Positions 15,207 through 33,548 are shown, counted from the stretch's first letter. The stretch: DNA of 64,000 bases from an uncultured delta proteobacterium (GCA_963743305.1 CAVUPH010000027.1:1-64000); one strand, 5' to 3'. Translations and numbers: made by a program. The notes: generated by a model not told the origin, from the sequence alone.

Positions 15207-15470
15207 ATGCGTAATAAATGTCTTCTGCTGATTTTGGTTTTAGTTTGTTTTTCTTTATCCCCTTTCTTCTCCCGGGCGGATGACGTCAAAGGACCCGACC
15301 CGAACCCGACCCCAACCATTCAGGGACCGAGTCCAAGCAAGATAGATAATCCCAATTCTCCGGTCTCCAACCACTCTTCGGAAGTCAAGGCCGGAGGCGC
15401 TTCACAGGATCAGAAATCACAAGCTCTCCCGGCGGTAAGAATTCAAGAAGGCACTAATGCCGAAGACTGA
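15207..15470 (+). CDS. Hypothetical exported low-complexity protein
   Basis: Signal peptide followed by a P/S-rich tail. Confidence 0.45.
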
Positions 15471-15525
15471 TCCTGATAATGACCCTCCGGGGGAGGGGAT
15501 AATGACAAGCAAGGAGGAACATACC

Positions 15526-17408: not shown

Positions 17409-18620
17409 ATGGAAATGGTAATGTCTAGAAAAAATTTTCTTTTTTATTTGCTATTATCAACCGCTTTAATCACTCTCTTTGCACCCCTCTATCTTTTCGG
17501 GGAAGGGAAGAAGGAGGAAATCGGGTCTTTAAAGGATTTGATCGCTCACTATGATTCCGGACGATGCAAGGAGTGCCATGCGGAGATTTACGCCCAGTGG
17601 GAAAAATCCCATCATGCCCGGCCCTTGATGGGCATGGACGACTGGATCTTCATGTCCAAATACCTCAAAGAGGGAGTTCTGGCAGTCAAGTCGCCCGAGC
17701 AGGCCACCAAGGCCAACTTCCCTTGCGCCAAGTGCCATCTGCCCCAACTTTTCAAAGCAACCGATGCCGTAGCCGCGGAACTGGCCGCCGCCGTCTTCCG
17801 GGACGACAAAAAAACCATCCGCCGGTTGAATATCGGCTGCCTGGTCTGCCACCAGGATAAGGCCGTGGTTCATGGCCGGCCGAAGTTATCGGTCCTCTAC
17901 GGCAATCGGGAGATCAAGGACCATGAGGGCCTCCCGGTAAAGAAAAGCCCCCTGCTGAAATATCCCCTCTTCTGCGGCCAGTGCCATGGCCTCGGCCCCA
18001 ACCTCGAATTCGAAAATCCGGTCCAGTGCGCCACGTTGTACGGCAGCTATCTCCATGCCTACCTCCCCAACGGAGGGGCTCAGACCTGCCAGGACTGCCA
18101 CATGCCGGGCAAGGACCATACCTGCCTGCCGAACTTCAACGACCGGGCCGGCACCTCCGCCCGTCTCCGCCAGGCCTTACCCCTGGAGGTGGAAACCCTG
18201 GGCTATGTTTTCCAGATAGAAGAAGGAAAGCATCTACCCCTGGTCGTGGTTAAAACCCGGATAACCAATAAGGCCGGCCACCGGATCCCGGACGGCTGAC
18301 CCACCCGCACCCGGGTGGTCCTGGAAGTGACCGCTACCGCTCCCAACGGGCAAAAATTCTTTGAAGGAACAAAATTTTATATGCCTCAGGCCGGCGACGG
18401 CCGGGGCCCGATCATGGTCCTGGGACCGGACAAAAAACTAGGCCTGTTGCGCGATACCAGCCTTCAGCCTTTCCGGCCGAAGGAGGAAACCTTTGAACTC
18501 CCGGTTCCCAAAGGAATCAATGAGGTTACCGTGACGGTTCAGTTGACCTACCAGCCCCGCCCGGGGAATAGTTATTCCCTCCAAACCATCAGCCGTCGGG
18601 TACGAATGGATACCCCCTAA
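17409..18620 (+). CDS. Pentaheme c-type cytochrome selenoprotein, ExtKL-like (UGA at 18297-18299)
   Basis: Five CxxCH motifs (CKECH, CAKCH, CLVCH, CGQCH, CQDCH). [20 protein letters not shown] is in frame with ORF 18315..18620; hairpin GGTGGTC-CTGGAAGT-GACCGCT follows. Confidence 0.85.
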
Positions 18621-18653: not shown

Positions 18654-19802
18654 TTAATTTAGAAATTTATCCAGCCCCATATGGCCGTGCATTTTCAGAA
18701 ATTCTTTCCGGCCCATGGTAAAAAGAAGGGCGCCATAAGAAAAGCCCTCGAAAGGGAGGGCGTACCGTTCCAATCCCGGTTCGGTGCAATTTAGACACTC
18801 CGGATAACCGCCTATCCTTTGGCGAAATCGAGCCGCTGGGGTGGAATTCCAGAGAGCAACAAGATCGTCTGTTTCTATATTGCCTACCCGGCTCCCGGTT
18901 ATTAAAGGACACAAAAAGACATCCCCATTATATCGAATAAATAGATAATTGAAACCACAAGTGCAGGGTTTGTCCATAACCCCCTGCTGAGCCCATTCGA
19001 GGAGCTTCCGGTTATGATAAGCCCAGCGAAAGCGCCGGCCCTGAAAAAATTCAATCATTTGTTCCCTGGCCTCGGGGCTAAAAACCAATTCCGCGGCGCG
19101 ATCGGGGTTTAAGTACCGCCCCGGGGTGACGATACAGGGAGAGATAATGGTAAAAAACCCCTCCGTTTCCGCCAATTCGACGATCTTCCCCAACTCCCCG
19201 ACGTTTAAGGGGACTATCGTCGTTTTGAGTCCGATAATCAGGTTAGGGAATTCTTCTCTGATTTTCTTTAGCCCCTCGAGGGTGGCCCGAACCCTCAACC
19301 AGGCGTCCGGATAATTCCTTATTCGGTCGTGAAGGGGGCCGATCCCGTCCAGAGCGCAGACCATGACCAGGTCGAGTCCGACCTCCCTGAGTTCGGAAAG
19401 GATACCCGGAGTCAGGCCCAGGACCCGATCGGTCAATAACCCATTGGTGGTGACGGCCAGGGATTGAAGAGCCCTTAAGTTTTTCGCCTTCAACCTGCTG
19501 ACGTTCGAAATAAGATCGGGAAGGTCCTTTCTCAAGAATGGCTCCCCCCCGGTCAGGTCCAGTTCTCGTAAATCCGAAAACAATTCCATTGAAAGCAAGG
19601 TGACCCATTTCTCCAAGGGTAGATCCGGCACCTCCCTGGGAATTTTCCAGATATTGCACATCAGGCATTTGGCCACACAGTGATGCGTGATTTCCAAGCT
19701 TAGGGCCTGCGGTTTCCCGGGCCTGCCGGTCCATTTTAAGTAGCGATACCTTAGGCCCTGGCCCAGAAGTTGGCAGGAAAGTTTGAAGAGCGATGGGGTC
19801 AT
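18654..19802 (-). CDS. Radical SAM protein with twitch/SPASM-like domain, last gene of the mft run
   Basis: CVAKCLMC, TGGEPF, CTCG...GDVFLCP...CLNC; ATGA overlap with mftF. Confidence 0.88.
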   Translation of the reverse strand: MTPSLFKLSCQLLGQGLRYRYLKWTGRPGKPQALSLEITHHCVAKCLMCNIWKIPREVPDLPLEKWVTLLSMELFSDLRELDLTGGEPFLRKDLPDLISNVSRLKAKNLRALQSLAVTTNGLLTDRVLGLTPGILSELREVGLDLVMVCALDGIGPLHDRIRNYPDAWLRVRATLEGLKKIREEFPNLIIGLKTTIVPLNVGELGKIVELAETEGFFTIISPCIVTPGRYLNPDRAAELVFSPEAREQMIEFFQGRRFRWAYHNRKLLEWAQQGVMDKPCTCGFNYLFIRYNGDVFLCPLITGSRVGNIETDDLVALWNSTPAARFRQRIGGYPECLNCTEPGLERYALPFEGFSYGALLFTMGRKEFLKMHGHMGLDKFLN

Positions 19803-21289
19803 CCTCTTTCTCTAAAGAGGGGGTCGGTTGCCAATCGGGGATTCACCGGTCGGAAACACCGATTTTTCAGGCACCCCCACCAAACACCCAACTGATAAGA
19901 AAGCTGATCCAGCGTGAAATACCAAAAAAAGGAAAAGAAATTCAGCCGTGGTTTCTTGATAAAATATTCCACCCCAGCGGTCAAAAGGTGCAGGCCCAAC
20001 AGGATCAGGGAAATCGCGGGCAGAAAAAAACCGAAAGGTAGCGCCAGCACGAGATAATACCGGGAGAAGAAAGCCGCCCAATGGTATAAGAGGGCAAGAT
20101 AACCTCGGAGAGCGGCGGCCACGATAGTAAAAAAAGTCAGAGTAAGCTTTTGGCGGGCCAATTTAAAAAACCGGATTCCGGAATCCAGCAATAAAACCAG
20201 GCCGCTGACGACCAATAGGGGTGGGTAAAGAAACCGGAGGGCCAAGAAAAGAAAAATCCAGAAGAAAAATCCGGCGGGGGGAAGAATCAATTGCTTGATA
20301 CGGTGGCTATGCCGGCGCTGCAGCCAAGGTTCGGAGGTGCCGTACTCAAAGCGCCTGCGGCAAAAAGGGCTGAGTCTATTCCGATGACGGTGATATATCT
20401 TTCCCCGGGGCCGATACTCCATCTGGAACCCCTCATCCTGCAGCCTCCAGCACAAATCTACATCTTCACCCACTTGCAGATCCTCCCGAAATCCCCTTAA
20501 GCTCAAAAAAACGTCCCGTTTGACCAGGAGGTTGCAGGAGGGCAGGTAAAAAAACCGATCCGCCTCTTGCGAACGTCTAAACCAGGCCCCGATAGATAAT
20601 GAGGACTTGACCTCCTCATATCGGTCCAGTCCTTTTTCACCGGAAGAGGCCGCCACCATCCCGCCTATGGCCCCTAGGGCCGGATCTTTAAAGGCCGGGA
20701 CCAAGTCCTTCAACCAGAGCGGATGGGCCTGACAATCGGAATCGATAAAGGCCAGGATTTCTCCTTTGGCCTTCCGGGCAGCCAGATTTCTGCAAAAAGA
20801 GGCTTGCTTAGGCTCTGTTAGTCGCCAGAGCGCGACGGGAAAGGTGGAAATCACCTCCGGGGTCGAATCACTGGAGGAATCATCCACCACCAGAATTTCC
20901 ATTTTCCCCGGAGGATAGTCCAGGTGAGCGAGCGAAGCAAGACAGTCCGCTATCTCTTCCGATCTATTTCTGACCGGGACGATGACGGAGACCAGGGGAT
21001 AATCCGGGAGTAATAAAGTACCCTCCGGTTCCAGGAACCCTCTCCGCACCAAGTCGTCCAGGAAAAATATGAGTTTATCCGGATTGATCGAAGGAACCCG
21101 GGAACTTATATCTTCGGCGGAAACGAATTGGTCTCCGGATAAAGAATCCAGCACCGGGATCCAAAAAGGGTCCAGCCGCAGGACCTTCAAGGGGAAGGCC
21201 AGAACCAAAACGGGGATCCGGTTTCTCTGCGTATGGACCACCGATTCCCGCAGGCGATAGGCCAGGGGTTTTGTTATTGGGCCGACCAT
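19799..21289 (-). CDS. mftF: Mycofactocin-system glycosyltransferase (GT2)
   Basis: N-terminal extension, VIVPVRNR, DSDC, DRYEEVKSSL, YLPSCNLLV, GEDVDLCWRL, YGTSE; operon context. Confidence 0.88.
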   Translation of the reverse strand: MVGPITKPLAYRLRESVVHTQRNRIPVLVLAFPLKVLRLDPFWIPVLDSLSGDQFVSAEDISSRVPSINPDKLIFFLDDLVRRGFLEPEGTLLLPDYPLVSVIVPVRNRSEEIADCLASLAHLDYPPGKMEILVVDDSSSDSTPEVISTFPVALWRLTEPKQASFCRNLAARKAKGEILAFIDSDCQAHPLWLKDLVPAFKDPALGAIGGMVAASSGEKGLDRYEEVKSSLSIGAWFRRSQEADRFFYLPSCNLLVKRDVFLSLRGFREDLQVGEDVDLCWRLQDEGFQMEYRPRGKIYHRHRNRLSPFCRRRFEYGTSEPWLQRRHSHRIKQLILPPAGFFFWIFLFLALRFLYPPLLVVSGLVLLLDSGIRFFKLARQKLTLTFFTIVAAALRGYLALLYHWAAFFSRYYLVLALPFGFFLPAISLILLGLHLLTAGVEYFIKKPRLNFFSFFWYFTLDQLSYQLGVWWGCLKNRCFRPVNPRLATDPLFRERG

Positions 21290-22092
21290 CCGGCATCCAC
21301 GGGTATGACCGCCCCGGTGGTGAATTGGCTTTTATCTGAAACCAGCCAGGCTACCGTTCGGGCAATATCCCTGGGGGTGATCGGACGGTCTTGAAAAAGA
21401 TGCCGTCGAGCAAAATGAGGATACGGTTCGTCCGCCAACTGAATTTGGGAGGCCAGCCCCGAGAGCATCGGGGATTCAGTGGTTCCAGGACAAACCGCGT
21501 TTACATTAATATTATGATCGGCCACCTCCAGGGCCAGCGCTTTGGTCAGACCGATGATCCCATGCTTGGCCGCGCAGTAATGGACGCTGAGGCCCAATCC
21601 GCGCTGCCCGGCTACGGAGGAAATATTGACGATCTTACCGTAGTGCTGTTCGACCATCGCCGGCAGGGCGTATTTGCAACAGAGATACGTCCCTTTCAGG
21701 CAGACATCCACCACTTCATCCCAGGCCTTTTCGGTCAGGCGGGTGATCGGATGAAGGGAGACCACGCCGGCATTGTTGATCAGGATATCCAGGCGGCCGA
21801 ATTGATCGCGCACCTGGCCAAAGGCGGCTTTGACCTGCCTATCCTGGCGGATGTCGCACGTCAAACCCAGGGTCTCGACCCCCATTTTGGCAATTTCCTG
21901 AACCGCTCCTTCCAAATCCGACGGCCCAGCCAGGGCGTAGGGGATAGTCTTTAAGTCTCGACAGATATCGACCAGGGCGATGGAAGCACCCTGGGCTGCC
22001 AGTTCTTTGGCTATGGCCAGGCCGATATTCCGGGCCCCACCGGTGACCAGGGCACATTTACCGGAAAATTCTTTTCGTCCTTTGCGGGCCAC
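21274..22092 (-). CDS. Mycofactocin-coupled SDR oxidoreductase
   Basis: TGGARNIG, insertion DICRDLKTIPYALAGPSDL typical of Mft-associated SDRs, YCAAK. Confidence 0.85.
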   Translation of the reverse strand: MARKGRKEFSGKCALVTGGARNIGLAIAKELAAQGASIALVDICRDLKTIPYALAGPSDLEGAVQEIAKMGVETLGLTCDIRQDRQVKAAFGQVRDQFGRLDILINNAGVVSLHPITRLTEKAWDEVVDVCLKGTYLCCKYALPAMVEQHYGKIVNISSVAGQRGLGLSVHYCAAKHGIIGLTKALALEVADHNINVNAVCPGTTESPMLSGLASQIQLADEPYPHFARRHLFQDRPITPRDIARTVAWLVSDKSQFTTGAVIPVDAGWSAQ

Positions 22093-22097
22093 GACGT

Positions 22098-22970
22098 TTA
22101 TTCACCCCCGGATTTCTGCCGAGACCCCAGGAAACCATGGTTCTCTAAAAAGGAGAGGATCCCTTCCACCTGCGATTCAGGGCTTCCAGTCAGCACGAGC
22201 CCGTTTTTTTGGATGCTGGTGCCGGAAAGAAGCTGGTCGATCCTTTCATAAGCCGGCCGAGAGCAATCCGGTGCCGGGATTCTTTTGGGTCGCGGACGTG
22301 GAGGAAACACTTCGGCCATCACTGTTTGGGGTTTCGGGCTGGGATCATTATACGTTATTTGGTGAAAAGGGATAGACCAGGCCTGCTTTTTGTTTGGATA
22401 GGTGGGCAGCGGGAGGGCTTGGCCACCCAGATCAACACTGAAGACCGCCGGTAGCGGGCAAAGGACAGTTTCCCGCACTCCCCGTCCCCCACTCCTTTGA
22501 ACAGTCCCTGAATGGTGGTCTGAAGAAAACGTCAGTTGGGTAATGGCCGAGACAAAAGGCCTCTTCAGGTGATAGGCCAGGTAGGCCCCCATGAGACCGT
22601 TTTGTTTGTCCAAAGACTCTTTTCCGCAGAGGACAACCCGGGCACCCAGATCCTTTATCGCCCGAGCTAAATAGATGGATTTGGCCCAGGGATCCGCTTC
22701 ACCTTCTCCAGCCAGAAGATAAAGCCGGTCGGCCCCCAAGGCCAGACAGCGTCGCAGTTCGGCTTCGGCGATGAGGGGCCCCAAAGTCAATAAGGCGACC
22801 TCTCCTTCACCCAAAGAAGCCCTGGCCGATAAGGCTAATTCCAAGGCCGCCTCGTCGTAGGGATTGATTCGATAAAGGGTATCTTCCGGTGCCAAAAAAT
22901 GCTGTTCCGGATCGAGACCGCTTCGGCAGTAGGTGTGGGCTATTTGTTTGATACAAACGACGATCTTCAT
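22098..22970 (-). CDS. etfB: Electron transfer flavoprotein beta subunit
   Basis: MKIVVCIKQ, INPYDEAALE, LALGAD, CGKESLD. Confidence 0.92.
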   Translation of the reverse strand: MKIVVCIKQIAHTYCRSGLDPEQHFLAPEDTLYRINPYDEAALELALSARASLGEGEVALLTLGPLIAEAELRRCLALGADRLYLLAGEGEADPWAKSIYLARAIKDLGARVVLCGKESLDKQNGLMGAYLAYHLKRPFVSAITQLTFSSDHHSGTVQRSGGRGVRETVLCPLPAVFSVDLGGQALPLPTYPNKKQAWSIPFHQITYNDPSPKPQTVMAEVFPPRPRPKRIPAPDCSRPAYERIDQLLSGTSIQKNGLVLTGSPESQVEGILSFLENHGFLGSRQKSGGE

Positions 22971-22973
22971 GGC

Positions 22974-24875
22974 CTAGTTCCTTTCCAGGGAAGCGGCCAC
23001 GATTTCGATGACATCCCGGACCTGTGGGGGGGGGTTCTTTTCCTGAGAGAGAACCCCGTCTTCGAGCATGACCAAACAATACGGACAAGCGGTCCCGACC
23101 AGTTCCACCCCGGATACCATGATCTCTTCGGCCCGAAGTTGATTAATGGGACGACCCCTGGTTTCATGAAGCCACATGTGCCCGCCTCCGCCTCCACAGC
23201 AAAAACCGTTTTCCCGGTTCCGGGGTAATTCCTGAACTTCAATATCCGGGACGGCCGAAAGGATTTCCCGAGGCGATTGATACTGTTGATTCGCCCGACC
23301 CAGATAGCAGGGATCATGAAAAACGGCCTTTTTCCTTAAAGGGTATTTTAATTTGATTCGCTGTCGGTCAATCAGCTCTTTGACCAGTTCGCTGGCATGA
23401 AAAACCTGGAACTTTCCTCCTAAGGGGGGATACTCGTTTTTCAGCGTATTCAGGCAATGAGGGCAGAGGGTCACGATTTTTTTAACCGGGTAGTGATTCA
23501 AGCGCTGGATATTCTTTCTGGCCAGCTCTGCAAACAAGGCTTCCTCACCCAGCCTCCGGGCCGGATCCCCGCAACAAAACTCCTCTTTTTCTAAGAAACC
23601 GAACCGGACCTGCCCGACCTTCATAATCTCCACCAACGCCCTGGCCACCTTCTGGTAGCGCGGATGAAAGGACCCGTAACAGCCCACCCAGAAAAGCACT
23701 TCAGGACTTAAGCCCCTGGCGGACATAGGGCTTAGACCCAGGTTGAAAGCCCATTCGGAACGGTAGGCCCTGCCTTTACCCTGAACATCCCCGAATAGTT
23801 CCAGATTGCGGATAGCCGGTCTGGCCTCCGGGGGGACCAGGCCTCTTCCCAGAACCTGATATCTTCTCAAATCCATGATTTGCCGCAAGGGTTGGATGAA
23901 GATCGGGCACTGTTCGATACAGGCCAGGCAGGTGGTGCAGGACCAAATTTCTTCCTCACTGATGTCCTGGGCGAGCAGGGGTGGGCCGGATTGATCTTCC
24001 GCTCTTTTTCGGTGAACGGCTTGCTCCATCTGGCCCAGGATCTTCTGAATCACTTTTTGAGGAGAGAGGGGTTTTCCGGAAAGAAAGGCCGGGCAGTTCT
24101 GCTGACAACGGTTGCAGGCCACACAGGCCTCGGCATCCATCAACTGCTTCCAGGAAAAATCGTGGACCGTTTGAGCTCCCAGGTCCCCTTTTTCCAAGGA
24201 GAGTGGATAAAGTTGGCCTGGCCCTTGCCGGCTGTGAAAATAAACATTGAGAGGCGCCGCTGCTAAATGACGCAAGGAAGTGAAAGGTATCAGGGCGATC
24301 AAGATCAGGACCGTCAGCAAATGGAAACGAATGACTACTTGCAAAAACCAGGGAGAGTCCGGCATTCCCAGAGATACCAGCCAACCCAAAGGAGAGGCCC
24401 AGAGGTCACCGCCGGGGACTATACGTAACCGCGTCCCTTCGGCCAGGAAGCCGGTGATGGCGATAATCAACAGGAGCAGCAGCGGCAGGGCCGTCTGGAA
24501 GGATAGGGAATAATCCGGCTGATTCAAACGGCGAAAAAGGAACCAGAAGGTCCCGACCAGCAGGGCTATTCCCAAAAGGTCCAAAAAGAAAGAGAGTAGT
24601 TGAGCCACCGGCCCGGGAATTGAAAAATCAAATTGAGCCAGGAGAATGATTCCCAGCGGGATAACCACCCCCCAGAATAAAACCAGGTGGGCCGTCCCGG
24701 AACCTTTTTTTCTGACTATTCGCTTCTGGCCGACGAGGTAACCGATCAGACCTTTCCAATCCCCCGGACGAGTTTCAGCCCCCCCCTGCCTCCACAGGGA
24801 TCTCCGCCGGATGAAGCCGAAAGCGCCAAGCAATAAGGCCAGGGTTACCAGGAAAAAATCAAAAACCGTCAGCAT
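22974..24875 (-). CDS. Membrane-bound Fe-S oxidoreductase (NarI-like TM + 2x4Fe-4S + 2 CCG domains; HdrD/GlpC/EMO-like)
   Basis: TM helices with His, CVACNRCQQNCP, CTTCLACIEQCP, CCGD, HDPCYLGR, CCGGGGG, ACPYC; start moved to ATG 24875. Confidence 0.9.
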   Translation of the reverse strand: MLTVFDFFLVTLALLLGAFGFIRRRSLWRQGGAETRPGDWKGLIGYLVGQKRIVRKKGSGTAHLVLFWGVVIPLGIILLAQFDFSIPGPVAQLLSFFLDLLGIALLVGTFWFLFRRLNQPDYSLSFQTALPLLLLLIIAITGFLAEGTRLRIVPGGDLWASPLGWLVSLGMPDSPWFLQVVIRFHLLTVLILIALIPFTSLRHLAAAPLNVYFHSRQGPGQLYPLSLEKGDLGAQTVHDFSWKQLMDAEACVACNRCQQNCPAFLSGKPLSPQKVIQKILGQMEQAVHRKRAEDQSGPPLLAQDISEEEIWSCTTCLACIEQCPIFIQPLRQIMDLRRYQVLGRGLVPPEARPAIRNLELFGDVQGKGRAYRSEWAFNLGLSPMSARGLSPEVLFWVGCYGSFHPRYQKVARALVEIMKVGQVRFGFLEKEEFCCGDPARRLGEEALFAELARKNIQRLNHYPVKKIVTLCPHCLNTLKNEYPPLGGKFQVFHASELVKELIDRQRIKLKYPLRKKAVFHDPCYLGRANQQYQSPREILSAVPDIEVQELPRNRENGFCCGGGGGHMWLHETRGRPINQLRAEEIMVSGVELVGTACPYCLVMLEDGVLSQEKNPPPQVRDVIEIVAASLERN

Positions 24876-24877
24876 GG

Positions 24878-25648
24878 TTACTTTTTCCTTCGCCCCCTTT
24901 TGAATCGGGCCGATAGAATACCGATTCCCCCCAATCCCAACAGCAGTAGCCAGGCCTGATCCAAGACCAGGGAGACAAAAACCGCCGGATGGGTTTTCGG
25001 ATCCGCTTGGGGATGAATATATCCCAGGAATGAGGCTTTCCCCCCGAGGTCGCCATGACACTTTGAACAGCTTTGGCTGTTTAGCGGTTGCTCCTCTCCG
25101 TGGGCGGCTTGCCCTTGATGACAACCCAGACAATTACTCCTGCGGTAATGTTGGCTGAAATCCTGCTTGGCATGAGAGGCCACTTGCAGCGAAGGAAAAT
25201 AAGTCCAATAATTGTTCGCGCCGCACTCCCGGGGATGGCAGCCGCGGCAGGTCTTTTTTAGATTTTCAGGGTTGACGGTGGAGGCGGGGTTATCTTTTTT
25301 CAATATGTCATGCCGGGTATGGCACGTCTGGCAGGCGGGTAATGGCGATCCTTTTTTTGAAGAACGCCGTCCGTGCCTGTTTACTTGTTCGTGACACCCG
25401 CGACAATTGACCCGGCCTGAACCTATTTGGTGTTGATGGTTCTGATCTTTAATCCCGACGTGACATTCCTGGCAGGAAATGTTTTGCCCATGAACCGATT
25501 TGAAAAATGCACTGCCGGAAAGTTGCTGGCGGGTTTTGGGGTTTCCTGTTTCATGGCAGCCCAGGCATTCTTCCGTGGTGTAGGCCAGAGTAGACTGAGG
25601 GAAAAACAGAAAGATCGCCCCAAGCAATAAAAAGGGAAAAGCGGACAT
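24878..25648 (-). CDS. Heptaheme c-type cytochrome with C-terminal membrane anchor
   Basis: Signal peptide, seven CxxCH motifs, hydrophobic C-terminus with basic tail. Confidence 0.9.
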   Translation of the reverse strand: MSAFPFLLLGAIFLFFPQSTLAYTTEECLGCHETGNPKTRQQLSGSAFFKSVHGQNISCQECHVGIKDQNHQHQIGSGRVNCRGCHEQVNRHGRRSSKKGSPLPACQTCHTRHDILKKDNPASTVNPENLKKTCRGCHPRECGANNYWTYFPSLQVASHAKQDFSQHYRRSNCLGCHQGQAAHGEEQPLNSQSCSKCHGDLGGKASFLGYIHPQADPKTHPAVFVSLVLDQAWLLLLGLGGIGILSARFKRGRRKK

Positions 25649-25652
25649 ACCT

Positions 25653-26684
25653 TTATTTCGGTTCCTTCATTTTGTGCAGCTTCTCAATCAAAATAGGCAA
25701 TAATTTATGAACATCCCCCACCACCCCCAAGTCGGCCAATCGAAAAATGCGGGCCTGGGGATCGGTGTTGATCGCCAAAACCAATTTGGACTTTTCCATG
25801 CCCACGGTGAATTCGTTAGCCCCGGAAATGCCGCAGGCCACCAGTAACCGGGGGGAAACCGTCTTCCCGGTCTGGCCGATTTGCCGTTCAAATGTCAGGG
25901 TCTTTGAATCTATGACGGGGCGCGTGCCGCCCACCGTCCCCCCCAGGACCCCGGCCAGTTCATGGACGACGGAAAAAGAACCTTCCCGACCGACTCCCCG
26001 TCCTCCACAGACGATGAGATCCGCCTCCTCCAGGTCCAGGACTTCAGGAGGGGCTTCGAATCGTTCCAACAGCCGGGTGCCCTGCCTTTCCGACTGGTCC
26101 TGGAGAAAAATTTCCGTGATTTCCGGGTTGGCAGGAACGGGGATTTTTTCCGAGGTTAGCACCGAGGGCAGAAAGGTCAGGATATGGGGTGTCTGATCGG
26201 CAAAATAGACTCTTTCAAAAAGATGCCCGTTCGCCACCGCTCGAACGGCCCAAGCCTTTCCCCGGCCATCCACCTGGGCATCCAGGGCCCGGGTGATTAA
26301 ACCGGTTTCCAGAAGAGCGGCCAACCGGGGGGCCCAATCGCCCGTCTCCGCGGTTTGGGCCAGCAGGAAAAAAGAGGGTTGCCGCGTTCTGATCAAATCA
26401 GCCAATAACCAAGCGGTCCTTTCTCCTGGAACCTCAGGGCGATGATCCTCCCGACACCAAAGCACCCGCTGCACCCCGAAATGCCCTAACCCTTTCAGCT
26501 CCTCCTCGGCAACCGGGCCCAAGACTACGGCGGTCACCGTTGCTGTTTCTCCCCGGGAAGGAAGGAGCCGCCGGGCTTCACCGGCCAATCCCTTGGTTAG
26601 TTCTTCAACAGCGCCGGCCCTGGTATGTACCCAAATCCAGATATCCTCTGATTTGGAACGGATTTTCCCGAACTCCAAACTCAT
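25653..26684 (-). CDS. etfA: Electron transfer flavoprotein alpha subunit
   Basis: GGRGV, GGTRPVID, RQIGQTGKTVSP, GISGA, AINTD; ATGA overlap. Confidence 0.93.
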   Translation of the reverse strand: MSLEFGKIRSKSEDIWIWVHTRAGAVEELTKGLAGEARRLLPSRGETATVTAVVLGPVAEEELKGLGHFGVQRVLWCREDHRPEVPGERTAWLLADLIRTRQPSFFLLAQTAETGDWAPRLAALLETGLITRALDAQVDGRGKAWAVRAVANGHLFERVYFADQTPHILTFLPSVLTSEKIPVPANPEITEIFLQDQSERQGTRLLERFEAPPEVLDLEEADLIVCGGRGVGREGSFSVVHELAGVLGGTVGGTRPVIDSKTLTFERQIGQTGKTVSPRLLVACGISGANEFTVGMEKSKLVLAINTDPQARIFRLADLGVVGDVHKLLPILIEKLHKMKEPK

Positions 26685-28639
26685 AGGCGCCTTCCCACCC
26701 GATGACCTTCCAGGATGGCCGTATCGGTTTTCCGAGGAGCCAGACAATCGCCGATCCGGTACAGCTCCTGGACTTTTCCTTTAAGGGCAAAATAAAGCGC
26801 GTCGCAAGACCGGTTCCCGGCCACCAGGACAATCGTGTCCTGGTCTTCAAAATCGATCAATTGATTGGAATAGACGTTCAAGCCTTTGACCAATTTTCCT
26901 TGAATCTCCAGAACGGCTATGTCGGGAGTAAAGGTGACCCCCTTTTGGGCCAATCGCTTTCGGGTCAGATAGAGGTCTTGCAAAGGCCCCAGTTGGCTGC
27001 CGATAAACAAGGCCGGGGTGAGGATATGAACAACCCTGCCCCGGTCGGCCAGATATTCGGCCGTGCCCGTACCTTGATGATGCCCTTCCAAATCAATCAG
27101 CAGCACCCGGGGGCCGGCCACCACCAGCCCGGTCAGAACTTGGGGGGCAGTAACCACATCCGGAAAGGAGTAATCCCCCGGAAAGGGATGCTCTTTGGGA
27201 AGCGAGCCGCTGGCCACCACGACCGCATCCGGTTTTTCGGCTAAGACCAAGGCTTCCGTTGCCTCCATCCCCAACCTAAGATCAATATCCAGTTGGCTGA
27301 TCTGTCCGACCAGCCAGCGGGTTACTCCGGTGATTTCTTGTCTTCCGGCCGCCTGGCCGGCAATCAGATTCTGCCCCCCCACTTCCGGATTTTTTTCCAG
27401 GAGAATGACCTCGTGTTTTCTGAGGGCCGCTACGCGGGCGGCCTCCAGACCGGCCGGCCCGCCCCCAATCACCAGCACTTTTTTAGGTCTTTCAGCGGGC
27501 CGGAGGGTCCCCGCGCCCCAGACCTTCTCCCGGCCCACGGCCGGGTTTTGAACACACCCCAATAAATAACCCAACCCCATCCGGCCGATGCATCCCTGAT
27601 TGCAGGCAATGCATTGGCGAACATCTTCCACTCTTCCTTCCCGGGCTTTATTCGGCAATTCCGGATCGCAGATCAAGGCCCGGACCATCCCGATCATATC
27701 CGCTCGACCGTCGGCCAGAATTTTTTCAGCCAGATGAGGGTCATTAATGCGGTTGGTGCAAAAAACCGGCAGGGTAATGACCGAGCGGATGCCGGCGGCC
27801 AGAGGAACCGTGTAGGCCAGCGGGGTGTGCATGGAACCTTCCACCAGGAAGAGATGATGGAAGGTCCCCAGACTGAGGTCCATGAAATCCAGTTGATCCG
27901 TGGCCTCCAACTGCTGGGCGATGATTTTGGCGTCTTCCAAGGTCAAGCCGCCCCGCGGGTGCATTTCATCGGCATTTAATCGTACGCCCAGGGTGAAGTC
28001 GGGCCCTATGGCCTGACGAACGGATTGAATGACCTCCAGACAAAATCGCAGCCGATTCTCAGAAGTCCCGCCATAGTCATCCTGACGAAAGTTGGTGGCC
28101 GGCGATAAAAACTGTCGGATAAGGGAACTGTGGCCGATCTGAAGCTCTATCCCGTCGAACCCCCCTTCGACGGCATGGACCGCGCTTCGGGCAAAAAATT
28201 CCAGGCATTCCCGAATGTCCTCGATTTCCATTTCCTTGGCCGTCTCCCGGAAAAGGGGATCCTTACCGGCCGAGGGGCCCCAGACCGGTAACCGGGAATT
28301 CTTCCCATCCCCCTGCATTCCATTGTGGTTCAATTGGGCGAATATCTTGGTTTCGGTTTGGTGGATGGTCTTAGTCAGTTCCTGGAAACCGGGTATGACC
28401 TCCGGTTTATAGGCGTCTACGAGTTTGGCATAAGGATAATCGGTGGGGTGCACCGATAATTCTTCGGTGGTTATCAACCCACAACCCCCTTGGGCCCTCT
28501 CTCGATAATAATGGATATGCCGCTCGCTGATCCGGTTGTTTTCCCCGAAATTAGTCAAGTGGGCGGCAAAATGGATCCGGTTGGACACTACAATGCGGCC
28601 GATCTTCAAGGGGGCGAATAAATAGGGAAAGCCGCTCAT
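26681..28639 (-). CDS. Mycofactocin-system FadH/OYE-family flavoenzyme
   Basis: AAHLTNF, TEELSVHP, CIACNQGC, GGGPAGLEAA. Confidence 0.88.
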   Translation of the reverse strand: MSGFPYLFAPLKIGRIVVSNRIHFAAHLTNFGENNRISERHIHYYRERAQGGCGLITTEELSVHPTDYPYAKLVDAYKPEVIPGFQELTKTIHQTETKIFAQLNHNGMQGDGKNSRLPVWGPSAGKDPLFRETAKEMEIEDIRECLEFFARSAVHAVEGGFDGIELQIGHSSLIRQFLSPATNFRQDDYGGTSENRLRFCLEVIQSVRQAIGPDFTLGVRLNADEMHPRGGLTLEDAKIIAQQLEATDQLDFMDLSLGTFHHLFLVEGSMHTPLAYTVPLAAGIRSVITLPVFCTNRINDPHLAEKILADGRADMIGMVRALICDPELPNKAREGRVEDVRQCIACNQGCIGRMGLGYLLGCVQNPAVGREKVWGAGTLRPAERPKKVLVIGGGPAGLEAARVAALRKHEVILLEKNPEVGGQNLIAGQAAGRQEITGVTRWLVGQISQLDIDLRLGMEATEALVLAEKPDAVVVASGSLPKEHPFPGDYSFPDVVTAPQVLTGLVVAGPRVLLIDLEGHHQGTGTAEYLADRGRVVHILTPALFIGSQLGPLQDLYLTRKRLAQKGVTFTPDIAVLEIQGKLVKGLNVYSNQLIDFEDQDTIVLVAGNRSCDALYFALKGKVQELYRIGDCLAPRKTDTAILEGHRVGRRL

Positions 28640-30624
28640 AGCCCCTGTCCCACCTTCCGGCCTTCATAAATGGCGGTATCAATACCCCTCGGGCTTTGGC
28701 AATCTCCCACGCGATGGAGTTCCTTCACCCGACCTTTCAGCTCTCTATACAGCCAGTCGTTGGCGATATTCCCCATGTCCAGAACAACAGTCCCGTATCC
28801 TTCCCAGCCTTTAGGTTGGTTGGTATAAATATCCCGGCCCCTGACCGTAGTTCCTTGAATCTCATCGATGAGAACCTCGGTGGTAAAGGTGACCCCTTTT
28901 TGGAGCAAACGCTGTCGGGTCAGATAAAGATCCCCCAGCGGGGCCAGCTCGATGCCCACAAAAAGGTCGCTGGTGATCATATCCACTTGTTTCCCTTGAT
29001 CGGCCAGCAGTTCCACCGTGGCCGTAGCGTGATGCCCGCTGTTTTCATCAACAAAAAGGACCCGATCTCCGATAGGATACCGACCCTCCAGGACCTCCCA
29101 GACCGTGAGAACCTCCGGAGGACCGTATTGACCGGGGACCGGTTTAGCGTTCGGGAATGAACCGGTGGCCACAATCACGACATCGGGATTTTCTTCCAGG
29201 ACCCGTTCCGGGCTTATGGTCTGGTCGGTGAGCAGAGGCACGCCCAGGGCTTCCAACTGATGCTGGAGATACAAAATGACCCCGGCCATTCCCTGCCGAG
29301 TAGGTCTTTTTCGGATCAAATTGAGTTGGCCGCCCACGACTTTGTTTTTTTCATAGACCACTACCCGGTGGCCCCGGGAAGCGGCTGCCCGGGCGGCCTC
29401 CAATCCGGCCGGCCCGGCCCCGATGACCATGACCCGTCTGGCGATTTTAGAATGCGGCTGGGGGCTGGCAGCGTATTGGGTCGGATTATCGCCGAACGCC
29501 GAACGCTGAACGCCGAAGGCTTCGTAGCCCACTTCCGGATTCTGAATGCACCCCAGGGTCTTGGCCTGATTAATCCGTCCCAGACAGCCTTTGTTGTCCC
29601 GAACGCAATAACGAACTTTTTTCAGGTCTCCCGCGCGGATCTTTCTCGGGAAATCAGGGTCGCAAATCAATTGGCGAACATAGCCTACCAGATCGGCTTT
29701 CCCCAGAGCAACGGTCTCTTCGGCCATTTGCGGGGTATTGATTTGATAGCTGGCCATTATGGGAAGAGGAACGGCGGCTTTTATCTTTTCGGCCAATTCC
29801 ACGGTGTATCCGGGAGGAGTATGCATCGAAGCCAGGATCAGATGCAGGTTGTAATAGGTCCCCAAAGTCACATTGACAAAATCGATCCCGCCGGTTTGAC
29901 CGAGGTGACGGGCCATCTCCTGGGCCTCTTCCACGCCAATCCCGCCCCAGAATTTTTCATCGGCACATAACCGGATTCCCACCGTGAAATCGTTCCCCAC
30001 GACTTTCCGAATACCCTCCAGGACCTGGAGGGGCAGACGGAGACGGTTCTCCAGGCTGCCCCCGTATTCGTCTTGACGCTGGTTCGTCAGGGGAGAGAGA
30101 AACTGCCGCAACAGGGATTCCGGTCCCAGGTCTATCTCGATCCCGTCCAACCCGCCTGCCCGTACAAATCCGGCCGCCCGGGAAAAGGATTCCACCAGTT
30201 CCTCAAAATCCTCCGCCTCCATGGCTTTGGCCGTTTCCCCAAAGACGATATCCGCCAAGGCCGACGGCCCCCAGACGGGCATTCGGTTGATGGCCCCGCT
30301 GCTTTGAAACCCATGGTGGGTCAGTTGGGCAAATAGGGATGTGCCGGTTTCATGGATGACTTCGGTTAATTTCCGGTAATCAGGGACGATCGAGGGAACG
30401 GAGGCTTCGATCATGGTCTCCCAGGGGCGGTCATTGGCCTGGATGGCGAGTTCCCCCAGAATGATCAGCCCGCAGCCCCCGACAGCCCGCTGTTGGTAAT
30501 AGGCCCGATGGCGGTCATTGAAACGGCCGTCCCGGGAAAAATTGGTACGGTGCGCCAGAAAGCAAATACGGTTGGGCAAGGTGGACTGACCCAAAACCAG
30601 CGGTGTGAAGAGATGATCAAACAT
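28636..30624 (-). CDS. Mycofactocin-system FadH/OYE-family flavoenzyme, divergent paralog
   Basis: LAHRTNF, DEYGGSLENR, CVRDNKGC, GAGPAGLEAA; paralog of the adjacent gene. Confidence 0.85.
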   Translation of the reverse strand: MFDHLFTPLVLGQSTLPNRICFLAHRTNFSRDGRFNDRHRAYYQQRAVGGCGLIILGELAIQANDRPWETMIEASVPSIVPDYRKLTEVIHETGTSLFAQLTHHGFQSSGAINRMPVWGPSALADIVFGETAKAMEAEDFEELVESFSRAAGFVRAGGLDGIEIDLGPESLLRQFLSPLTNQRQDEYGGSLENRLRLPLQVLEGIRKVVGNDFTVGIRLCADEKFWGGIGVEEAQEMARHLGQTGGIDFVNVTLGTYYNLHLILASMHTPPGYTVELAEKIKAAVPLPIMASYQINTPQMAEETVALGKADLVGYVRQLICDPDFPRKIRAGDLKKVRYCVRDNKGCLGRINQAKTLGCIQNPEVGYEAFGVQRSAFGDNPTQYAASPQPHSKIARRVMVIGAGPAGLEAARAAASRGHRVVVYEKNKVVGGQLNLIRKRPTRQGMAGVILYLQHQLEALGVPLLTDQTISPERVLEENPDVVIVATGSFPNAKPVPGQYGPPEVLTVWEVLEGRYPIGDRVLFVDENSGHHATATVELLADQGKQVDMITSDLFVGIELAPLGDLYLTRQRLLQKGVTFTTEVLIDEIQGTTVRGRDIYTNQPKGWEGYGTVVLDMGNIANDWLYRELKGRVKELHRVGDCQSPRGIDTAIYEGRKVGQGL
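29490..29517. repeat. Four CGCCGAA-like heptamers inside the OYE gene
   Basis: cgccgaa cgccgaa cgctgaa cgccgaa. Confidence 0.75.
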
Positions 30625-30636
30625 GTGGGCGTGGTA

Positions 30637-31638
30637 TTAGGCCGCTGATCTTAAATTCACCAGGCATTCCGGGTCAGGCAAGGAAATATCGCGATAGGTA
30701 TGGTAGGCCATGGCCGGGCACCCGCCGCGGCAGGTCTCAAAGCGGCGGCAGGTATGGCAGGAGGAAATATCAAGAGTCCGGAACCGGCGAAAAATCGCCG
30801 CCTGATCCCAAATCTCTTTAAATGAGTGACGGCGCACATTGCCGGCCTGAAAGTCCTTTTCCTGCAAGAAGGCGCAGGGATAGACCTCCCCGCTGGGAGA
30901 CAGGCAACAGGTCATCTTGGCGGCGCCGCACATGTCCAATCCCTTGCGACGCCGATTCTCCGAGGTGAGGCAGAAGAAAGAATCCCCGGTACGTACTTGA
31001 TCGTGGCCATTCAGCCATTCCGCAAAGGCTTCCAACTGGTCCGGACTGGGATTGAGGAGTGTTTTGCTGTCTTTACCCCTCCCCGAGGGACGGAAACGCG
31101 ACACCCGAAACCCCGCTCGGTATTCCCCGGCCAATTCCCGCAAGGAGTCCAATTGGGAATAATTCAGCCTGGTCAGGACCGTATTGATACTATAGGAAAT
31201 ATTCTGCCTGGAGAGGCAGTCCAAGGCGGACAGGATCTTTCGATACGTCCCTTGACCGCGGATCCGGTCATTCACCTCCTCGGTGACGCCGTCCAGGCTG
31301 ACCTGGAGATAGAGCTGTTTAAAGGCCTTTAAGCGTCGGGCTAGTTCGTCATCCATGAGCAACCCGTTGGTACTCACACAGGCCACTATTCCCTTTTCCT
31401 GTAACCCAGTCAAAAGTTCCAGAAAATCTTTTCGAAGAAAGGGTTCCCCGCCGCCGATATTAACCTGAAAGACCTTCAGACCGGCCCATTGCCGGATCAG
31501 GTCTTGACACTCTCCGAAGGAAAGCTCCTCCGGTGAGGCCTCCCCGGCAGCGGAGAGGCAATGAGCACAGCGGAGATTGCATCGCCAGGTAATTTCCCAG
31601 GTCACGTTGACCGGGGCGCGAAGACCGGTGCGAGCCAT
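30637..31638 (-). CDS. mftC: Mycofactocin radical SAM/SPASM maturase
   Basis: APVNVTWEITWRCNLRCAHC, VFQVNIGGGEP, SRFRPSGRG, SPASM CGA...CxxC..C.GGC, PDPECL. Confidence 0.93.
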   Translation of the reverse strand: MARTGLRAPVNVTWEITWRCNLRCAHCLSAAGEASPEELSFGECQDLIRQWAGLKVFQVNIGGGEPFLRKDFLELLTGLQEKGIVACVSTNGLLMDDELARRLKAFKQLYLQVSLDGVTEEVNDRIRGQGTYRKILSALDCLSRQNISYSINTVLTRLNYSQLDSLRELAGEYRAGFRVSRFRPSGRGKDSKTLLNPSPDQLEAFAEWLNGHDQVRTGDSFFCLTSENRRRKGLDMCGAAKMTCCLSPSGEVYPCAFLQEKDFQAGNVRRHSFKEIWDQAAIFRRFRTLDISSCHTCRRFETCRGGCPAMAYHTYRDISLPDPECLVNLRSAA

Positions 31639-31639
31639 T

Positions 31640-31918
31640 TCAGCAGGCAAGAATGATCCCCTTCCCCTGCAAAGTGTTCAGTGTCTTTTTCAACGCCGAG
31701 TACCGATCCTCGGACCAGGGACCGGAAAGGGGCCCCCGCTGCCGCCATTCTTCCAGGGTGTGACGTCCTTGGAAAAAATCCGCCTTCAGGAAATCACCGG
31801 AGGAAACAAAATAAAGCCCCGGACCTTGCTGGGTATAGAAGAGCAATCCAAAGTCTTCCTCCCGTACCTGGCACCCTGGAGCCAGGGTATACCGGGGTCC
31901 TTGATCTATTGAGGTCAT
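31640..31918 (-). CDS. mftB: Mycofactocin RiPP-recognition chaperone
   Basis: YTLAPGCQVREEDFGLLFY...LQGKGII, PqqD-like, directly upstream of mftC. Confidence 0.88.
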   Translation of the reverse strand: MTSIDQGPRYTLAPGCQVREEDFGLLFYTQQGPGLYFVSSGDFLKADFFQGRHTLEEWRQRGPLSGPWSEDRYSALKKTLNTLQGKGIILAC

Positions 31919-31926
31919 AGTCCTTT

Positions 31927-31968
31927 TTAATATATCCCGCGGGTCCCGTCAATACGGATCTCTTCCAT
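31927..31968 (-). other. 13-codon MftA-like mini-ORF (MEEIRIDGTRGIY), remnant or variant precursor
   Basis: GGAG 7 nt before ATG; 7 of 12 residues match EELAIDGICGVY; occupies the canonical mftA position. Confidence 0.65.
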
Positions 31969-33168: not shown

Positions 33169-33173
33169 ACTCC

Positions 33174-33539
33174 CTACCCCGAACAGGTCTTCGGATTCGG
33201 CAAGCCGGCCACACGGCGGGCGCCCCGACGGATACCCTCCGGGAAGAGGGCCTCCATCTGCATGAAGGTCAAGCCGATCTCGGCTTTTATGTCACGGTTC
33301 ATGGGCGCCCGGCCGTTGTGGAAGTAGAAATTCCTCAAAAAATGGATGATCCGCCATTGGGTCTCGTTCATTTCTTCAAGCCCGGTTTCCGCGGCGAGGA
33401 TTCCGGCCAGCTCAACGGTCCAGTCTTCCGGTTTCCACAGGAATCCCTCGTTGTCAAAGAGGATCTCCCTCCCCGCGATCAAGCGAACCTTCCGGTTGGG
33501 CTGGCCGGAAAGGGGCTTGGACCCTGCAGATCCGTCCAT
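33174..33539 (-). CDS. TusE/DsrC-family sulfur relay protein
   Basis: DNEGFL..PEDW, LFP, AGLPNPKTC; one C-terminal Cys. Confidence 0.85.
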   Translation of the reverse strand: MDGSAGSKPLSGQPNRKVRLIAGREILFDNEGFLWKPEDWTVELAGILAAETGLEEMNETQWRIIHFLRNFYFHNGRAPMNRDIKAEIGLTFMQMEALFPEGIRRGARRVAGLPNPKTCSG

Positions 33540-33548
33540 GGGCCTCCG

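Follow-up and report, generated by a model that had tools for sequence, protein, structure and literature searches.

Mycofactocin (MFT) is a peptide-derived redox cofactor whose biochemistry is known almost wholly from aerobic mycobacteria; there the MftD step is described as aerobic (PMC8406134), and recycling by MftG feeds an aerobic chain. The canonical gene set, mftABCDEF(G), is that of Mycobacterium (PMC3023750, PMC11778925). MftD is the FMN-dependent premycofactocin synthase, MftE a peptidase of the creatininase family, and MftG, which most but not all systems possess, a mycofactocinol dehydrogenase of the GMC family. According to the accessible text of the survey Haft 2011 (PMC3023750), carriers include Geobacter uraniireducens, Geobacter sp. 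M18, Pelotomaculum and Desulfotomaculum acetoxidans, and the majority of mft species, though not every one, have MftD, MftE and MftR; a genome note on Geobacter pickeringii, as far as its accessible part goes, ties an mft cluster to methanol use (PMC4358379). Here, we have analyzed an mft locus in a 64-kb stretch of DNA from an uncultured delta proteobacterium (GCA_963743305.1 CAVUPH010000027.1:1-64000), which is referred to below as the window and comes from a 4.9-Mb genome that is 90% complete and divided into 43 contigs. This locus is a genuine MFT system of an anaerobe, and it belongs to a type that is real, conserved and widespread. Genes for MftD, MftE and MftG are absent, and two old yellow enzyme (OYE)-family flavoproteins, an electron transfer flavoprotein (ETF) and a putative ETF:quinone module are present; it is probable, judging from sequence comparisons, that the flavoprotein OYE_2, the ETF and this module substitute for the aerobic MftD step without oxygen, with or without an additional role in cofactor recycling.

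Several described systems resemble the locus in part. With the canonical mft system it shares the IDGxCGVY end of MftA, orthologues of MftB, MftC and MftF that score over their cut-offs, and nearby relatives of the Zn-dependent alcohol dehydrogenases (Zn-ADHs) and short-chain dehydrogenases/reductases (SDRs). However, the window has no MftD, MftE, MftG or TetR-type MftR context, its MftC belongs to a divergent clade scoring 320-380 bits compared with 575-670 for canonical MftC, and two OYE/FadH Fe-S flavoproteins, EtfAB, an EtfD-like protein, a heptaheme cytochrome and a second radical S-adenosylmethionine (radical SAM) enzyme, rSAM2, are added, with a sigma-54 activator nearby. Closer in content are the actinobacterial and Chloroflexota clusters behind the NCBIfam families TIGR03996, TIGR03997, NF038209 and TIGR04503 (OYE_1, OYE_2, mft_etfA/B, FixCX), which likewise have OYE_2 and an ETF inside the mft cluster and no MftD. 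These clusters keep canonical MftC and MftE and use FixC/FixX, whereas the window has no MftE, replaces OYE_1 with an OYE_2-like paralogue that has Asp in its Fe-S motif, and uses an EtfD/EMO-like protein and a cytochrome c. The membrane component resembles EtfD (M. smegmatis MSMEG_0690, the Rv0338c homologue; PMC13083937) and the Syntrophus ETF:methylmenaquinone oxidoreductase (EMO; 10.64898/2026.08.18.745454) in having a membrane domain, a pair of 4Fe-4S motifs, a pair of CCG domains and a gene beside etfAB. EtfD and EMO serve acyl-CoA beta-oxidation, while in the window the gene forms part of an mft operon, with translational coupling to a periplasmic heptaheme cytochrome c; together with that cytochrome it is also reminiscent of Tmc/Hmc-type complexes from sulfate reducers (weak matches to TmcB, HmcF and DsrK). 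Pyrroloquinoline quinone (PQQ) biosynthesis (PqqA-E) is more remote, being alike in the peptide-derived redox cofactor, the radical SAM/SPASM enzyme and the small chaperone but different in precursor, chemistry and accessory enzymes.

Gene identities were assigned from an open reading frame (ORF) listing and from NCBIfam and Pfam profile scans, to which the curated NCBIfam cut-offs were applied. The precursor gene and the genes of the main cluster are as follows.

46393-46514, minus strand: mftA, intact 40-aa precursor ending ...EELAIDGICGVY (TIGR03969, 32 bits, cut-off 25)
31640-31918, minus strand: mftB, precursor-binding chaperone (TIGR03967, 42 bits, cut-off 33)
30637-31650, minus strand: mftC, radical SAM/SPASM maturase of the divergent, "anaerobe-type" clade (TIGR03962, 358 bits, cut-off 265; Pfam Radical_SAM and SPASM; MftC tree)
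28636-30624, minus strand: OYEa, FadH/OYE-family flavoprotein of the FMN/Fe-S/FAD type, a paralogue of OYE_2 (TIGR03997, 746.5 bits, below the cut-off of 793)
26681-28639, minus strand: OYEb, mycofactocin system FadH/OYE oxidoreductase 2 (TIGR03997, 875.5 bits, cut-off 793)
25653-26747, minus strand: etfA, ETF alpha subunit (Pfam ETF and ETF_alpha; NF038209 mft_etfA, 138 bits, below the cut-off of 240)
24878-25648, minus strand: heptaheme c-type cytochrome (seven CxxCH motifs)
22974-24875, minus strand: EtfD/EMO-like membrane Fe-S protein, putative ETF:menaquinone oxidoreductase (Pfam Nitrate_red_gam, 4Fe-4S dicluster, two CCG domains)
22098-22970, minus strand: etfB, ETF beta subunit (Pfam ETF; TIGR04503 as top match, 92 bits, below the cut-off of 200)
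21274-22092, minus strand: SDR related to mycofactocin-coupled SDR subfamily 3 (NF040490 SDR_subfam_3, 359 bits, below the cut-off of 385)
19799-21289, minus strand: mftF, glycosyltransferase (TIGR03965, 364 bits, cut-off 280)
18654-19802, minus strand: rSAM2, second radical SAM/SPASM enzyme, overlapping mftF by 4 nt (Pfam Radical_SAM and SPASM)

An initial annotation, made from the sequence of the window, had listed mftB, mftC, two OYE genes, etfA, a cytochrome, a membrane Fe-S oxidoreductase, etfB, an SDR, mftF and a second radical SAM gene, together with an intact mftA upstream and no mftD or mftE in 64 kb; all of these genes are found where it placed them, and the intact mftA passes its family cut-off. 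Because all gaps from mftB to the final gene of the 13.3-kb minus-strand block (18654-31918) are at most 13 nt or overlaps, the mftB-to-rSAM2 region reads as a single operon. The ORF of the membrane Fe-S protein as listed extends to 25133; an internal ATG at 24875 matches the orthologues and is likely the true start. OYEa and OYEb are each approximately 655 aa long. Mycofactocin-named families are the best or near-best matches for OYEa, EtfA, EtfB and the SDR; rSAM2 scored above the cut-off of none of the NCBIfam families in the scan. PqqE was a distant match of MftC. The precursor ends in ...AIDGICGVY, with a Val-Tyr core, its ATG is preceded by AGGAGG, and it is the sole TIGR03969 match over cut-off in the whole genome. 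It lies 14.5 kb upstream of the operon, while an intact mftA stands directly before mftB in 51 of 60 related loci (five of the other nine have less than 450 nt upstream of mftC).

The absence of mftD and mftE noted in the window extends to the whole genome. No MftD over cut-off is present there (best match 31.6 bits against a cut-off of 471) and no MftE (best creatininase-family match 111.6-113 bits against 172, on another contig). This creatininase homologue, the sole gene of its family in the genome, was rejected as a hidden MftE, being unlinked, scoring equally for generic creatininase and being flanked by a thiol-disulfide oxidoreductase and a histidine kinase. Five MftC-bearing relatives of the same family likewise have no MftD or MftE over cut-off, and the same is true of all 16 genomes from which related loci came, which include the complete genome of Desulfosarcina variabilis str. 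Montpellier and several chromosome-level assemblies; ten of these 16 have no MftD-like match even at 1e-10, and seven have no creatininase-family match. Among 19 genomes with the divergent MftC, MftD is found in none, and a creatininase homologue below cut-off occurs in nine, with none at 1e-20 in the other ten. MftG gave no match at 1e-60 in the genome of the window or in any of these 19. Since MftD, MftE and MftG are absent both genome-wide and clade-wide, their absence is not an assembly gap. All-against-all ORF clustering of 67 loci revealed no further conserved family on the coding strand, and hence no peptidase candidate. Separately, four loci (L111-L114, from genomes G026, G021, G022 and G023) contain frames of about 800 aa, far from mft clusters, that begin with a creatininase domain; against the MftE model this N-terminal domain reaches 150-170 bits (cut-off 172).

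In contrast to these missing genes, the additional ones are conserved together with mftABC. A scan with MftC gave 73 loci, of which 60 (L032-L091) were kept and 13 at no more than 35% identity (L092-L104, other radical SAM/SPASM families) were excluded from the counts; synteny was assessed by tblastn with the proteins of the window, and the denominators are the loci with enough downstream sequence for each gene. The related loci belong to Syntrophobacter (80% identity), Desulfobacteraceae, Desulfocapsaceae, Desulfatiglandales, Desulfarculales, Desulfomonilaceae, Dehalococcoidales and one actinomycete metagenome-assembled genome (MAG), and the order mftA, mftB, mftC, OYEa, OYEb, etfA, cytochrome, EtfD-like, etfB, (SDR), mftF recurs in dozens of Thermodesulfobacteriota. 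An OYE gene lies immediately 3' of mftC in 47 of 52 loci, both OYE paralogues are present in 39/49, EtfA in 44/47, EtfB in 36/41, and an EtfD-like protein or FixC in 41/45 (EtfD-like in 35, FixC in 6). The cytochrome is found in 29/45 loci; of the 35 with an EtfD-like gene, 29 possess it. Loci of the Dehalococcoidales type, those of actinomycetes and some from Thermodesulfobacteriota have a reduced version of the cluster (mftC, OYEb, etfA, FixC, FixX, etfB, mftF and, in some cases, rSAM2); in both versions, therefore, the ETF is paired with a known kind of ETF-oxidizing partner. Orthologues of rSAM2 directly follow mftF in three of five large genomes searched and lie 4 kb away in a fourth, with none found in the fifth (G027); the gene is also directly 3' of mftF in L028, L037 and L082. 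In one Desulfatiglandales locus (L046, 11060-11781) mftC and OYEa are separated by an inserted toxin-antitoxin pair of the Phd/VapC kind, and a similar gap is seen at that place in a second locus of the same group (L047).

Three phylum samples were used for phyletic profiles of OYE_2 and MftD, comprising 401 genomes from an even sample of the phylum of the window, 301 from the phylum of the actinomycete MAG G030 and 301 from the phylum of the Chloroflexia MAG G029, which yielded 17, 32 and 19 MftC-positive genomes, respectively (68 in total); G000, G029 and G030 entered these samples as their centres, chosen because they bear MftC, which introduces a sampling bias. In the phylum of the window, OYE_2 (E<=1e-215) was detected in 15 of the 17 MftC-positive genomes and in none of the 384 MftC-negative ones. 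As to the two that lack it, in G381 an incomplete OYEb stands at the end of a contig of 2.6 kb, and G393 has only a second type of mft-like cluster described below. Among the 68 MftC-positive genomes, MftD is over cut-off in 26 and OYE_2 in 36, with no genome having the two together. Both are missing from six (G020, G421, G381, G393, G622 and G797), the first three of which show partial or near-cut-off OYE matches; the MftC of G622 sits on a 5-kb contig.

The same exclusion is observed where MftC is canonical. Of 30 canonical-MftC genomes in the G030-phylum sample, the six without MftD include all five with OYE_2, and all five retain MftE; three of the five have mftA, mftC, OYE_1, OYE_2, mft_etfA, FixC, FixX and mft_etfB, followed by MftE, on one contig, with the named families over cut-off. 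MftG is over cut-off in eight genomes, all MftD-positive, and the other 16 MftD-positive genomes have no OYE_2; OYE_2 therefore tracks the loss of MftD and not simply that of MftG. MftE follows a different pattern, being over cut-off in 29 of these 30 genomes (the thirtieth reaches 169 against 172) and in both canonical-type genomes tested from the G029-phylum sample, but in none of 19 divergent-MftC genomes of two phylum samples and none of three genomes of an intermediate type (Chloroflexota). Because the two patterns differ, two separable substitutions can be recognized, one of MftD against OYE_2/ETF whatever the type of MftC, the other a loss of MftE that accompanies only the divergent MftC. 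In a maximum-likelihood MftC tree of 50 rows, the divergent clade (20 rows, the window included) and the canonical clade (30 rows) each have support of 100, and OYE_2 genomes occupy four separate places within the canonical clade, so that at least five MftD/OYE_2 changes are needed.

Among solved structures, the nearest to OYEb are 2-naphthoyl-CoA reductase (NCR, 303 bits), the E. coli 2,4-dienoyl-CoA reductase FadH (252 bits), trimethylamine dehydrogenase (209 bits) and histamine dehydrogenase (206 bits), all of which have in common with it a flavin mononucleotide (FMN) barrel, a 4Fe-4S motif and nucleotide-binding domains. Trimethylamine and histamine dehydrogenases deaminate amines oxidatively, with C-N cleavage, and trimethylamine dehydrogenase donates electrons to ETF. 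The likeness of OYEb to these two enzymes lies in the three-domain OYE-like/4Fe-4S/nucleotide-binding architecture (about 207 bits), but they possess an FMN-linking Cys where OYEb has Leu or Met, and OYEb is closer to NCR and FadH. At what we take to be the Cys that forms 6-S-cysteinyl FMN in trimethylamine dehydrogenase, mapped via a HMMER alignment, the residue is Leu or Met in 52 of 54 OYEb sequences (Leu in the window) and Arg in 40 of 43 OYEa sequences, so that a covalent flavin of that kind is not supported. With the flavin-linking Cys replaced, the OYEs do not belong to the trimethylamine/histamine dehydrogenase subfamily, and their chemistry is not fixed by homology alone. The 4Fe-4S motif CxxCxxxC...C is intact in OYEb (C343, C346, C350 and C362); its second Cys is Asp in the OYEa of the window, in 40 of 43 OYEa orthologues and in 10 of 54 OYEb sequences, which suggests an Asp-ligated or otherwise altered cluster in OYEa.

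The ETF genes enclose the two components that may pass electrons on. The EtfD-like protein, encoded between etfA and etfB, has a NarI-like membrane domain, the motif CxxCxxCxxxC twice and CCG twice, and its sole match in the PDB is 9ojn (311 bits), the entry code cited in the accessible part of the M. smegmatis EtfD structure paper (PMC13083937). There, EtfD is described as an electron wire from ETF to menaquinone through a chain of Fe-S clusters and haem b; the Syntrophus aciditrophicus EMO is an ETF:methylmenaquinone oxidoreductase according to the accessible part of the preprint (10.64898/2026.08.18.745454). The membrane protein of the window has the EtfD/EMO architecture and is thus a putative member of this group, with haem binding and quinone reduction as predicted properties. 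In the heptaheme cytochrome, all seven CxxCH motifs and seven further (distal) His residues are invariant among 28 orthologues, and a signal-peptide-like N-terminus and a hydrophobic C-terminal anchor can be read from its sequence. Structure prediction of a complex between the cytochrome and the EtfD-like protein gave 0.00, 0.36 and 0.21 over runs against a mark of 0.32, which counts neither for nor against binding.

From gene content, synteny, phyletic patterns and homology, we infer the catalytic roles and the direction of electron flow as follows. MftB would bind MftA, which has a Val-Tyr core, and MftC, by orthology, would cyclize it to the lactam 3-amino-5-[(4-hydroxyphenyl)methyl]-4,4-dimethyl-2-pyrrolidinone (AHDP). 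OYE_2 (OYEb here) would then replace the O2-requiring MftD and convert the amine at C3 of the AHDP ring via an imine to the keto group of premycofactocin, perhaps assisted by OYEa or, in other lineages, OYE_1. The electrons would leave through the Fe-S and flavin centres of OYE_2 to EtfAB, which the EtfD/EMO-like protein would re-oxidize (FixCX elsewhere), delivering them to menaquinone and/or the attached periplasmic heptaheme cytochrome, and the product would be glycosylated by MftF. Reduced MFT, presumably made by the neighbouring nicotinoprotein-type Zn-ADHs and SDRs, would most likely be re-oxidized by the same OYE/ETF/membrane route, because the C3-OH of mycofactocinol is the same centre. 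The route would thus take on a job done in aerobes by MftG, and electrons from alcohols and aldehydes would be fed into anaerobic respiration. Menaquinone has a potential above -255 mV. As the midpoint of premycofactocin (about -255 mV in the accessible part of PMC8406134) lies below that potential, such re-oxidation is energetically plausible.

Several points weigh against a role of OYE_2 in place of MftD. The closest solved relatives of OYEb (NCR and FadH) are reductases, among named NCBIfam families it comes closest to BaiCD and bilirubin reductase, and the residue at the presumed flavin-linking position is Leu/Met or Arg as described above. EtfA, EtfB, the SDR and OYEa score under their curated cut-offs in the window. 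Two MftC-positive genomes (G622 and G797) have neither MftD nor OYE_2, and the second cluster type, with an mftA ending in GIY, has no adjoining MftD, MftE or OYE/ETF genes; two genomes (G393, which is 100% complete, and G005) carry this type only. An independent-pairs test, which is conservative, over all 50 rows of the MftC tree was non-significant: in five pairs, OYE_2 changed in the opposite way to MftD in three to four and in the same way in none (p 0.125-0.25), so that the direction is consistent and the contrasts are too few for significance. The loss of MftD and the gain of OYE_2 could merely both track anaerobiosis. The lack of a peptidase candidate from the ORF clustering leaves the proposed pathway incomplete, and a whole ETF and membrane complex seems excessive for a biosynthetic step, which favours a recycling role.

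This last point leads to the alternative that fares best, though we regard it as unlikely, namely that the OYE/ETF/membrane module only recycles the cofactor as a mycofactocinol:ETF oxidoreductase analogous to MftG, while the keto group is formed by an unrecognized enzyme or by an aminotransferase or dehydrogenase of housekeeping function. An electron-transfer apparatus of this size suits a catabolic flux, the cluster lies among aldehyde oxidoreductases, SDRs and ADHs of the nicotinoprotein type, none of 20 OYE_2 genomes tested has MftG over cut-off, and what replaces MftG in about 25% of MftC genomes is left open in the accessible part of a 2025 eLife paper (PMC11778925). However, OYE_2 occurs in 0 of 16 MftD-positive genomes without MftG over cut-off; the strict complementarity is with MftD. 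Furthermore, MftD-less actinobacterial clusters that keep MftE show no stand-in among cluster-specific oxidoreductases besides OYE_1, OYE_2 and the SDRs. The MftG calls are rough, since the cut-off is strict: 8 of 30 canonical genomes pass it, compared with the 75% given in the accessible part of PMC11778925.

It is more doubtful still that OYE_1 and OYE_2 are enzymes acting on enoyl, aromatic or steroid-like substrates, for which the ETF and/or mycofactocin are mere redox partners, that they take no part in cofactor synthesis or recycling, and that the anticorrelation with MftD reflects lifestyle. The closest characterized homologues (2-naphthoyl-CoA reductase, 2,4-dienoyl-CoA reductase, BaiCD and bilirubin reductase) agree with such a role, as does the abundance of OYE/FadH paralogues (8-10 matches per genome), but OYE_2 is confined to MftC-positive genomes (15/17 versus 0/384), an OYE directly follows mftC in 47/52 loci, OYE_2 is kept in minimal clusters consisting only of mftABC, OYE_2, ETF, FixCX and mftF, and it is never found with MftD in three phylum samples while occupying at least four places on the MftC tree. 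A chemically different product, in which the cofactor stays peptide-bound or keeps its amine or rSAM2 adds a modification, is the least probable of all, since the absence of MftE from the divergent-MftC (0/19) and intermediate-type Chloroflexota (0/3) genomes, the deep separation of the divergent MftC clade (support 100) and the frequent linkage of a second radical SAM/SPASM gene to mftF stand against an IDG[IV]CGVY MftA end in 51/60 loci, MftB, MftC and MftF that pass equivalog cut-offs, an rSAM2 that is not universal (not found in G027), and OYE_2/ETF clusters with canonical MftC that retain MftE, from which it follows that OYE_2 can work with free AHDP.

The substitution of OYE_2, ETF and the membrane module for MftD thus remains our preferred reading. 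A bolder version of it, which we consider improbable, applies to the divergent-MftC lineages: OYE_2 might act on the MftC-modified peptide and oxidize the N-C(alpha) bond of peptidyl-AHDP, whereupon hydrolysis would free premycofactocin without a peptidase, and the same enzyme would re-oxidize mycofactocinol. One ETF-coupled enzyme, delivering its electrons to the EtfD-like and heptaheme-cytochrome conduit in the membrane, would then replace MftE, MftD and MftG, and sulfate reducers and syntrophs would be able to conserve energy from alcohol oxidation.

With regard to what is new, the initial annotation had called the locus an undescribed, chemically distinct and O2-independent mycofactocin variant wired to the membrane, had proposed phylogenetic profiling of the gene set and had allowed that the extra genes might not co-occur with mftABC. 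Synteny and profiling show that they do: an OYE gene directly follows mftC in 47/52 loci, and OYE_2 is present only in MftC-positive genomes of the phylum sample. The term "undescribed" was too strong, as the association of OYE and ETF with mycofactocin is already recorded in the NCBIfam names (TIGR03996/TIGR03997, "mycofactocin system FadH/OYE oxidoreductase 1/2"; NF038209/TIGR04503, "mycofactocin-associated ETF" subunits), while its functional meaning was found in no paper. We found no paper combining mycofactocin with electron transfer flavoprotein, and none, within the accessible text of the literature, that gives OYE/ETF genes a mycofactocin role or describes a functional swap of MftD and OYE_2. 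The complementarity of OYE_2 and MftD and the inclusion of an EtfD-like protein and a cytochrome in the module are new here. Chemical distinctness is not supported. In 51 of 60 related loci MftA terminates in the eight canonical residues IDG[IV]CGVY (...IDGICGVY here), and MftB, MftC and MftF are orthologues, so that the expected product is the same AHDP-derived glycosylated keto-amide, reached via other enzymes. O2-independent operation wired to the membrane is plausible and fits the ETF and the membrane module.

In the sampled MftC-positive genomes, OYE_2 (36/68) is commoner than MftD (26/68) and none has both, which implies that a large and phylogenetically broad share of mycofactocin systems probably uses an uncharacterized, ETF-linked and O2-independent route. 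The module offers candidates for two questions, namely how the keto-amide redox centre is formed in anaerobes and how the cofactor is re-oxidized without MftG, and it suggests how, in sulfate reducers and syntrophs, electrons from alcohols and aldehydes might reach the membrane. The reading is directly testable in culture, since Desulfosarcina variabilis str. Montpellier (locus L073) is a carrier.

Between mftA and mftB and further upstream, the window contains the following features.

31927-31968, minus strand: mftA-like relic, a 13-codon ORF (MEEIRIDGTRGIY) directly upstream of mftB, leader and Cys lost
32005-33168, minus strand: cysteine desulfurase, between mftA and mftB (TIGR01977)
33174-33539, minus strand: DsrC-like gene, between mftA and mftB (TIGR03342)
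33670-36204, minus strand: molybdopterin aldehyde oxidoreductase, between mftA and mftB (NF045668, 732 bits, below cut-off)
36284-37423, minus strand: Zn-ADH, first of three (TIGR03989 as top match, 322 bits, cut-off 440)
44296-46269, minus strand: sigma-54-dependent transcriptional activator adjoining mftA (NCBIfam PrdR/DhaR-like matches; homologues near many related clusters)
47053-48165, minus strand: Zn-ADH, second (TIGR03989, 316 bits, below the cut-off of 440)
48520-50238, minus strand: tungsten-type aldehyde:ferredoxin oxidoreductase (Pfam AFOR_N and AFOR_C; syntenic upstream of mftA in relatives)
50765-51907, minus strand: Zn-ADH, third (TIGR03989, 340 bits, below the cut-off of 440; orthologue syntenic upstream of mftA in many loci)

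The 13-codon ORF, whose start is the end coordinate (31968) that the initial annotation gave to the system, is read as a decayed mftA relic because its DNA aligns with the 3' ends of mftA from the window and two relatives and because an intact mftA occupies that site in related loci. It may be regarded as the copy left behind by a rearrangement, which would have put the sigma-54 activator, a Liv-type ABC transporter, a Zn-ADH, an SDR, the molybdo-aldehyde oxidoreductase, the DsrC-like gene and the cysteine desulfurase between mftA and mftB. TIGR03989 is the mycofactocin-linked nicotinoprotein family, for which the three Zn-ADHs score 316-340 bits against a cut-off of 440. An AhpD-like protein lies further upstream with two of the Zn-ADHs and the tungsten-type aldehyde oxidoreductase, and the region from 18.6 to 52 kb looks like an alcohol and aldehyde oxidation island built round the cofactor. 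A scan for the sigma-54 consensus gave six matches compared with 3.3 expected (12 of 100 shuffles reach six), none of them upstream of mftA or mftB, and a search of sequencing runs gave no RNA row, only five rows of metagenomic DNA that belong to two studies and have word shares of at most 0.23.

The genes for the molybdo-aldehyde oxidoreductase, the DsrC/TusE-like protein and the cysteine desulfurase (32005-36204, minus strand) are also found as a trio upstream of the mft cluster in Desulfosarcina variabilis (L073, 1516-5645) and may be a sulfur-relay maturation set for the Mo enzyme. Two Liv-type ABC transporter sets are present on the minus strand, at 39242-43869 and 52331-57156. The second looks intact; the first, located between mftA and mftB, has its binding-protein gene broken into two ORFs (42567-43400 and 43423-43869) and shows odd overlaps among the permease ORFs, and this copy may be decaying.

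The second type of mft-like cluster consists of an SDR, an mftA ending in ...DGICGIY (an Ile-Tyr core in the loci from G-numbered genomes), mftB, mftC and mftF, and was seen at L024 (G020:C3), L026 (G009:C208), L031 (G005:C3), L143 (G393:C211) and L076/L077. Its MftC forms a clade of its own (support 99), one genome (G009) has both types, and in L024 the nickel-pincer cofactor genes LarB and LarC and a tungsten aldehyde oxidoreductase follow the cluster.

Just beyond the operon, at 14439-16617 on the plus strand, are genes for an ArsE/MTH895-type thioredoxin-like protein and an ACR3 arsenite efflux transporter. In addition, a multihaem cytochrome of the ExtKL (seleno)protein family, encoded at 17409-18620 on the plus strand, is interrupted by a single in-frame TGA; its halves match positions 11-314 and 321-421 of NF040886, and reading the TGA as selenocysteine (U297, ...RIPDGUPTR...) gives one protein of 403 aa.

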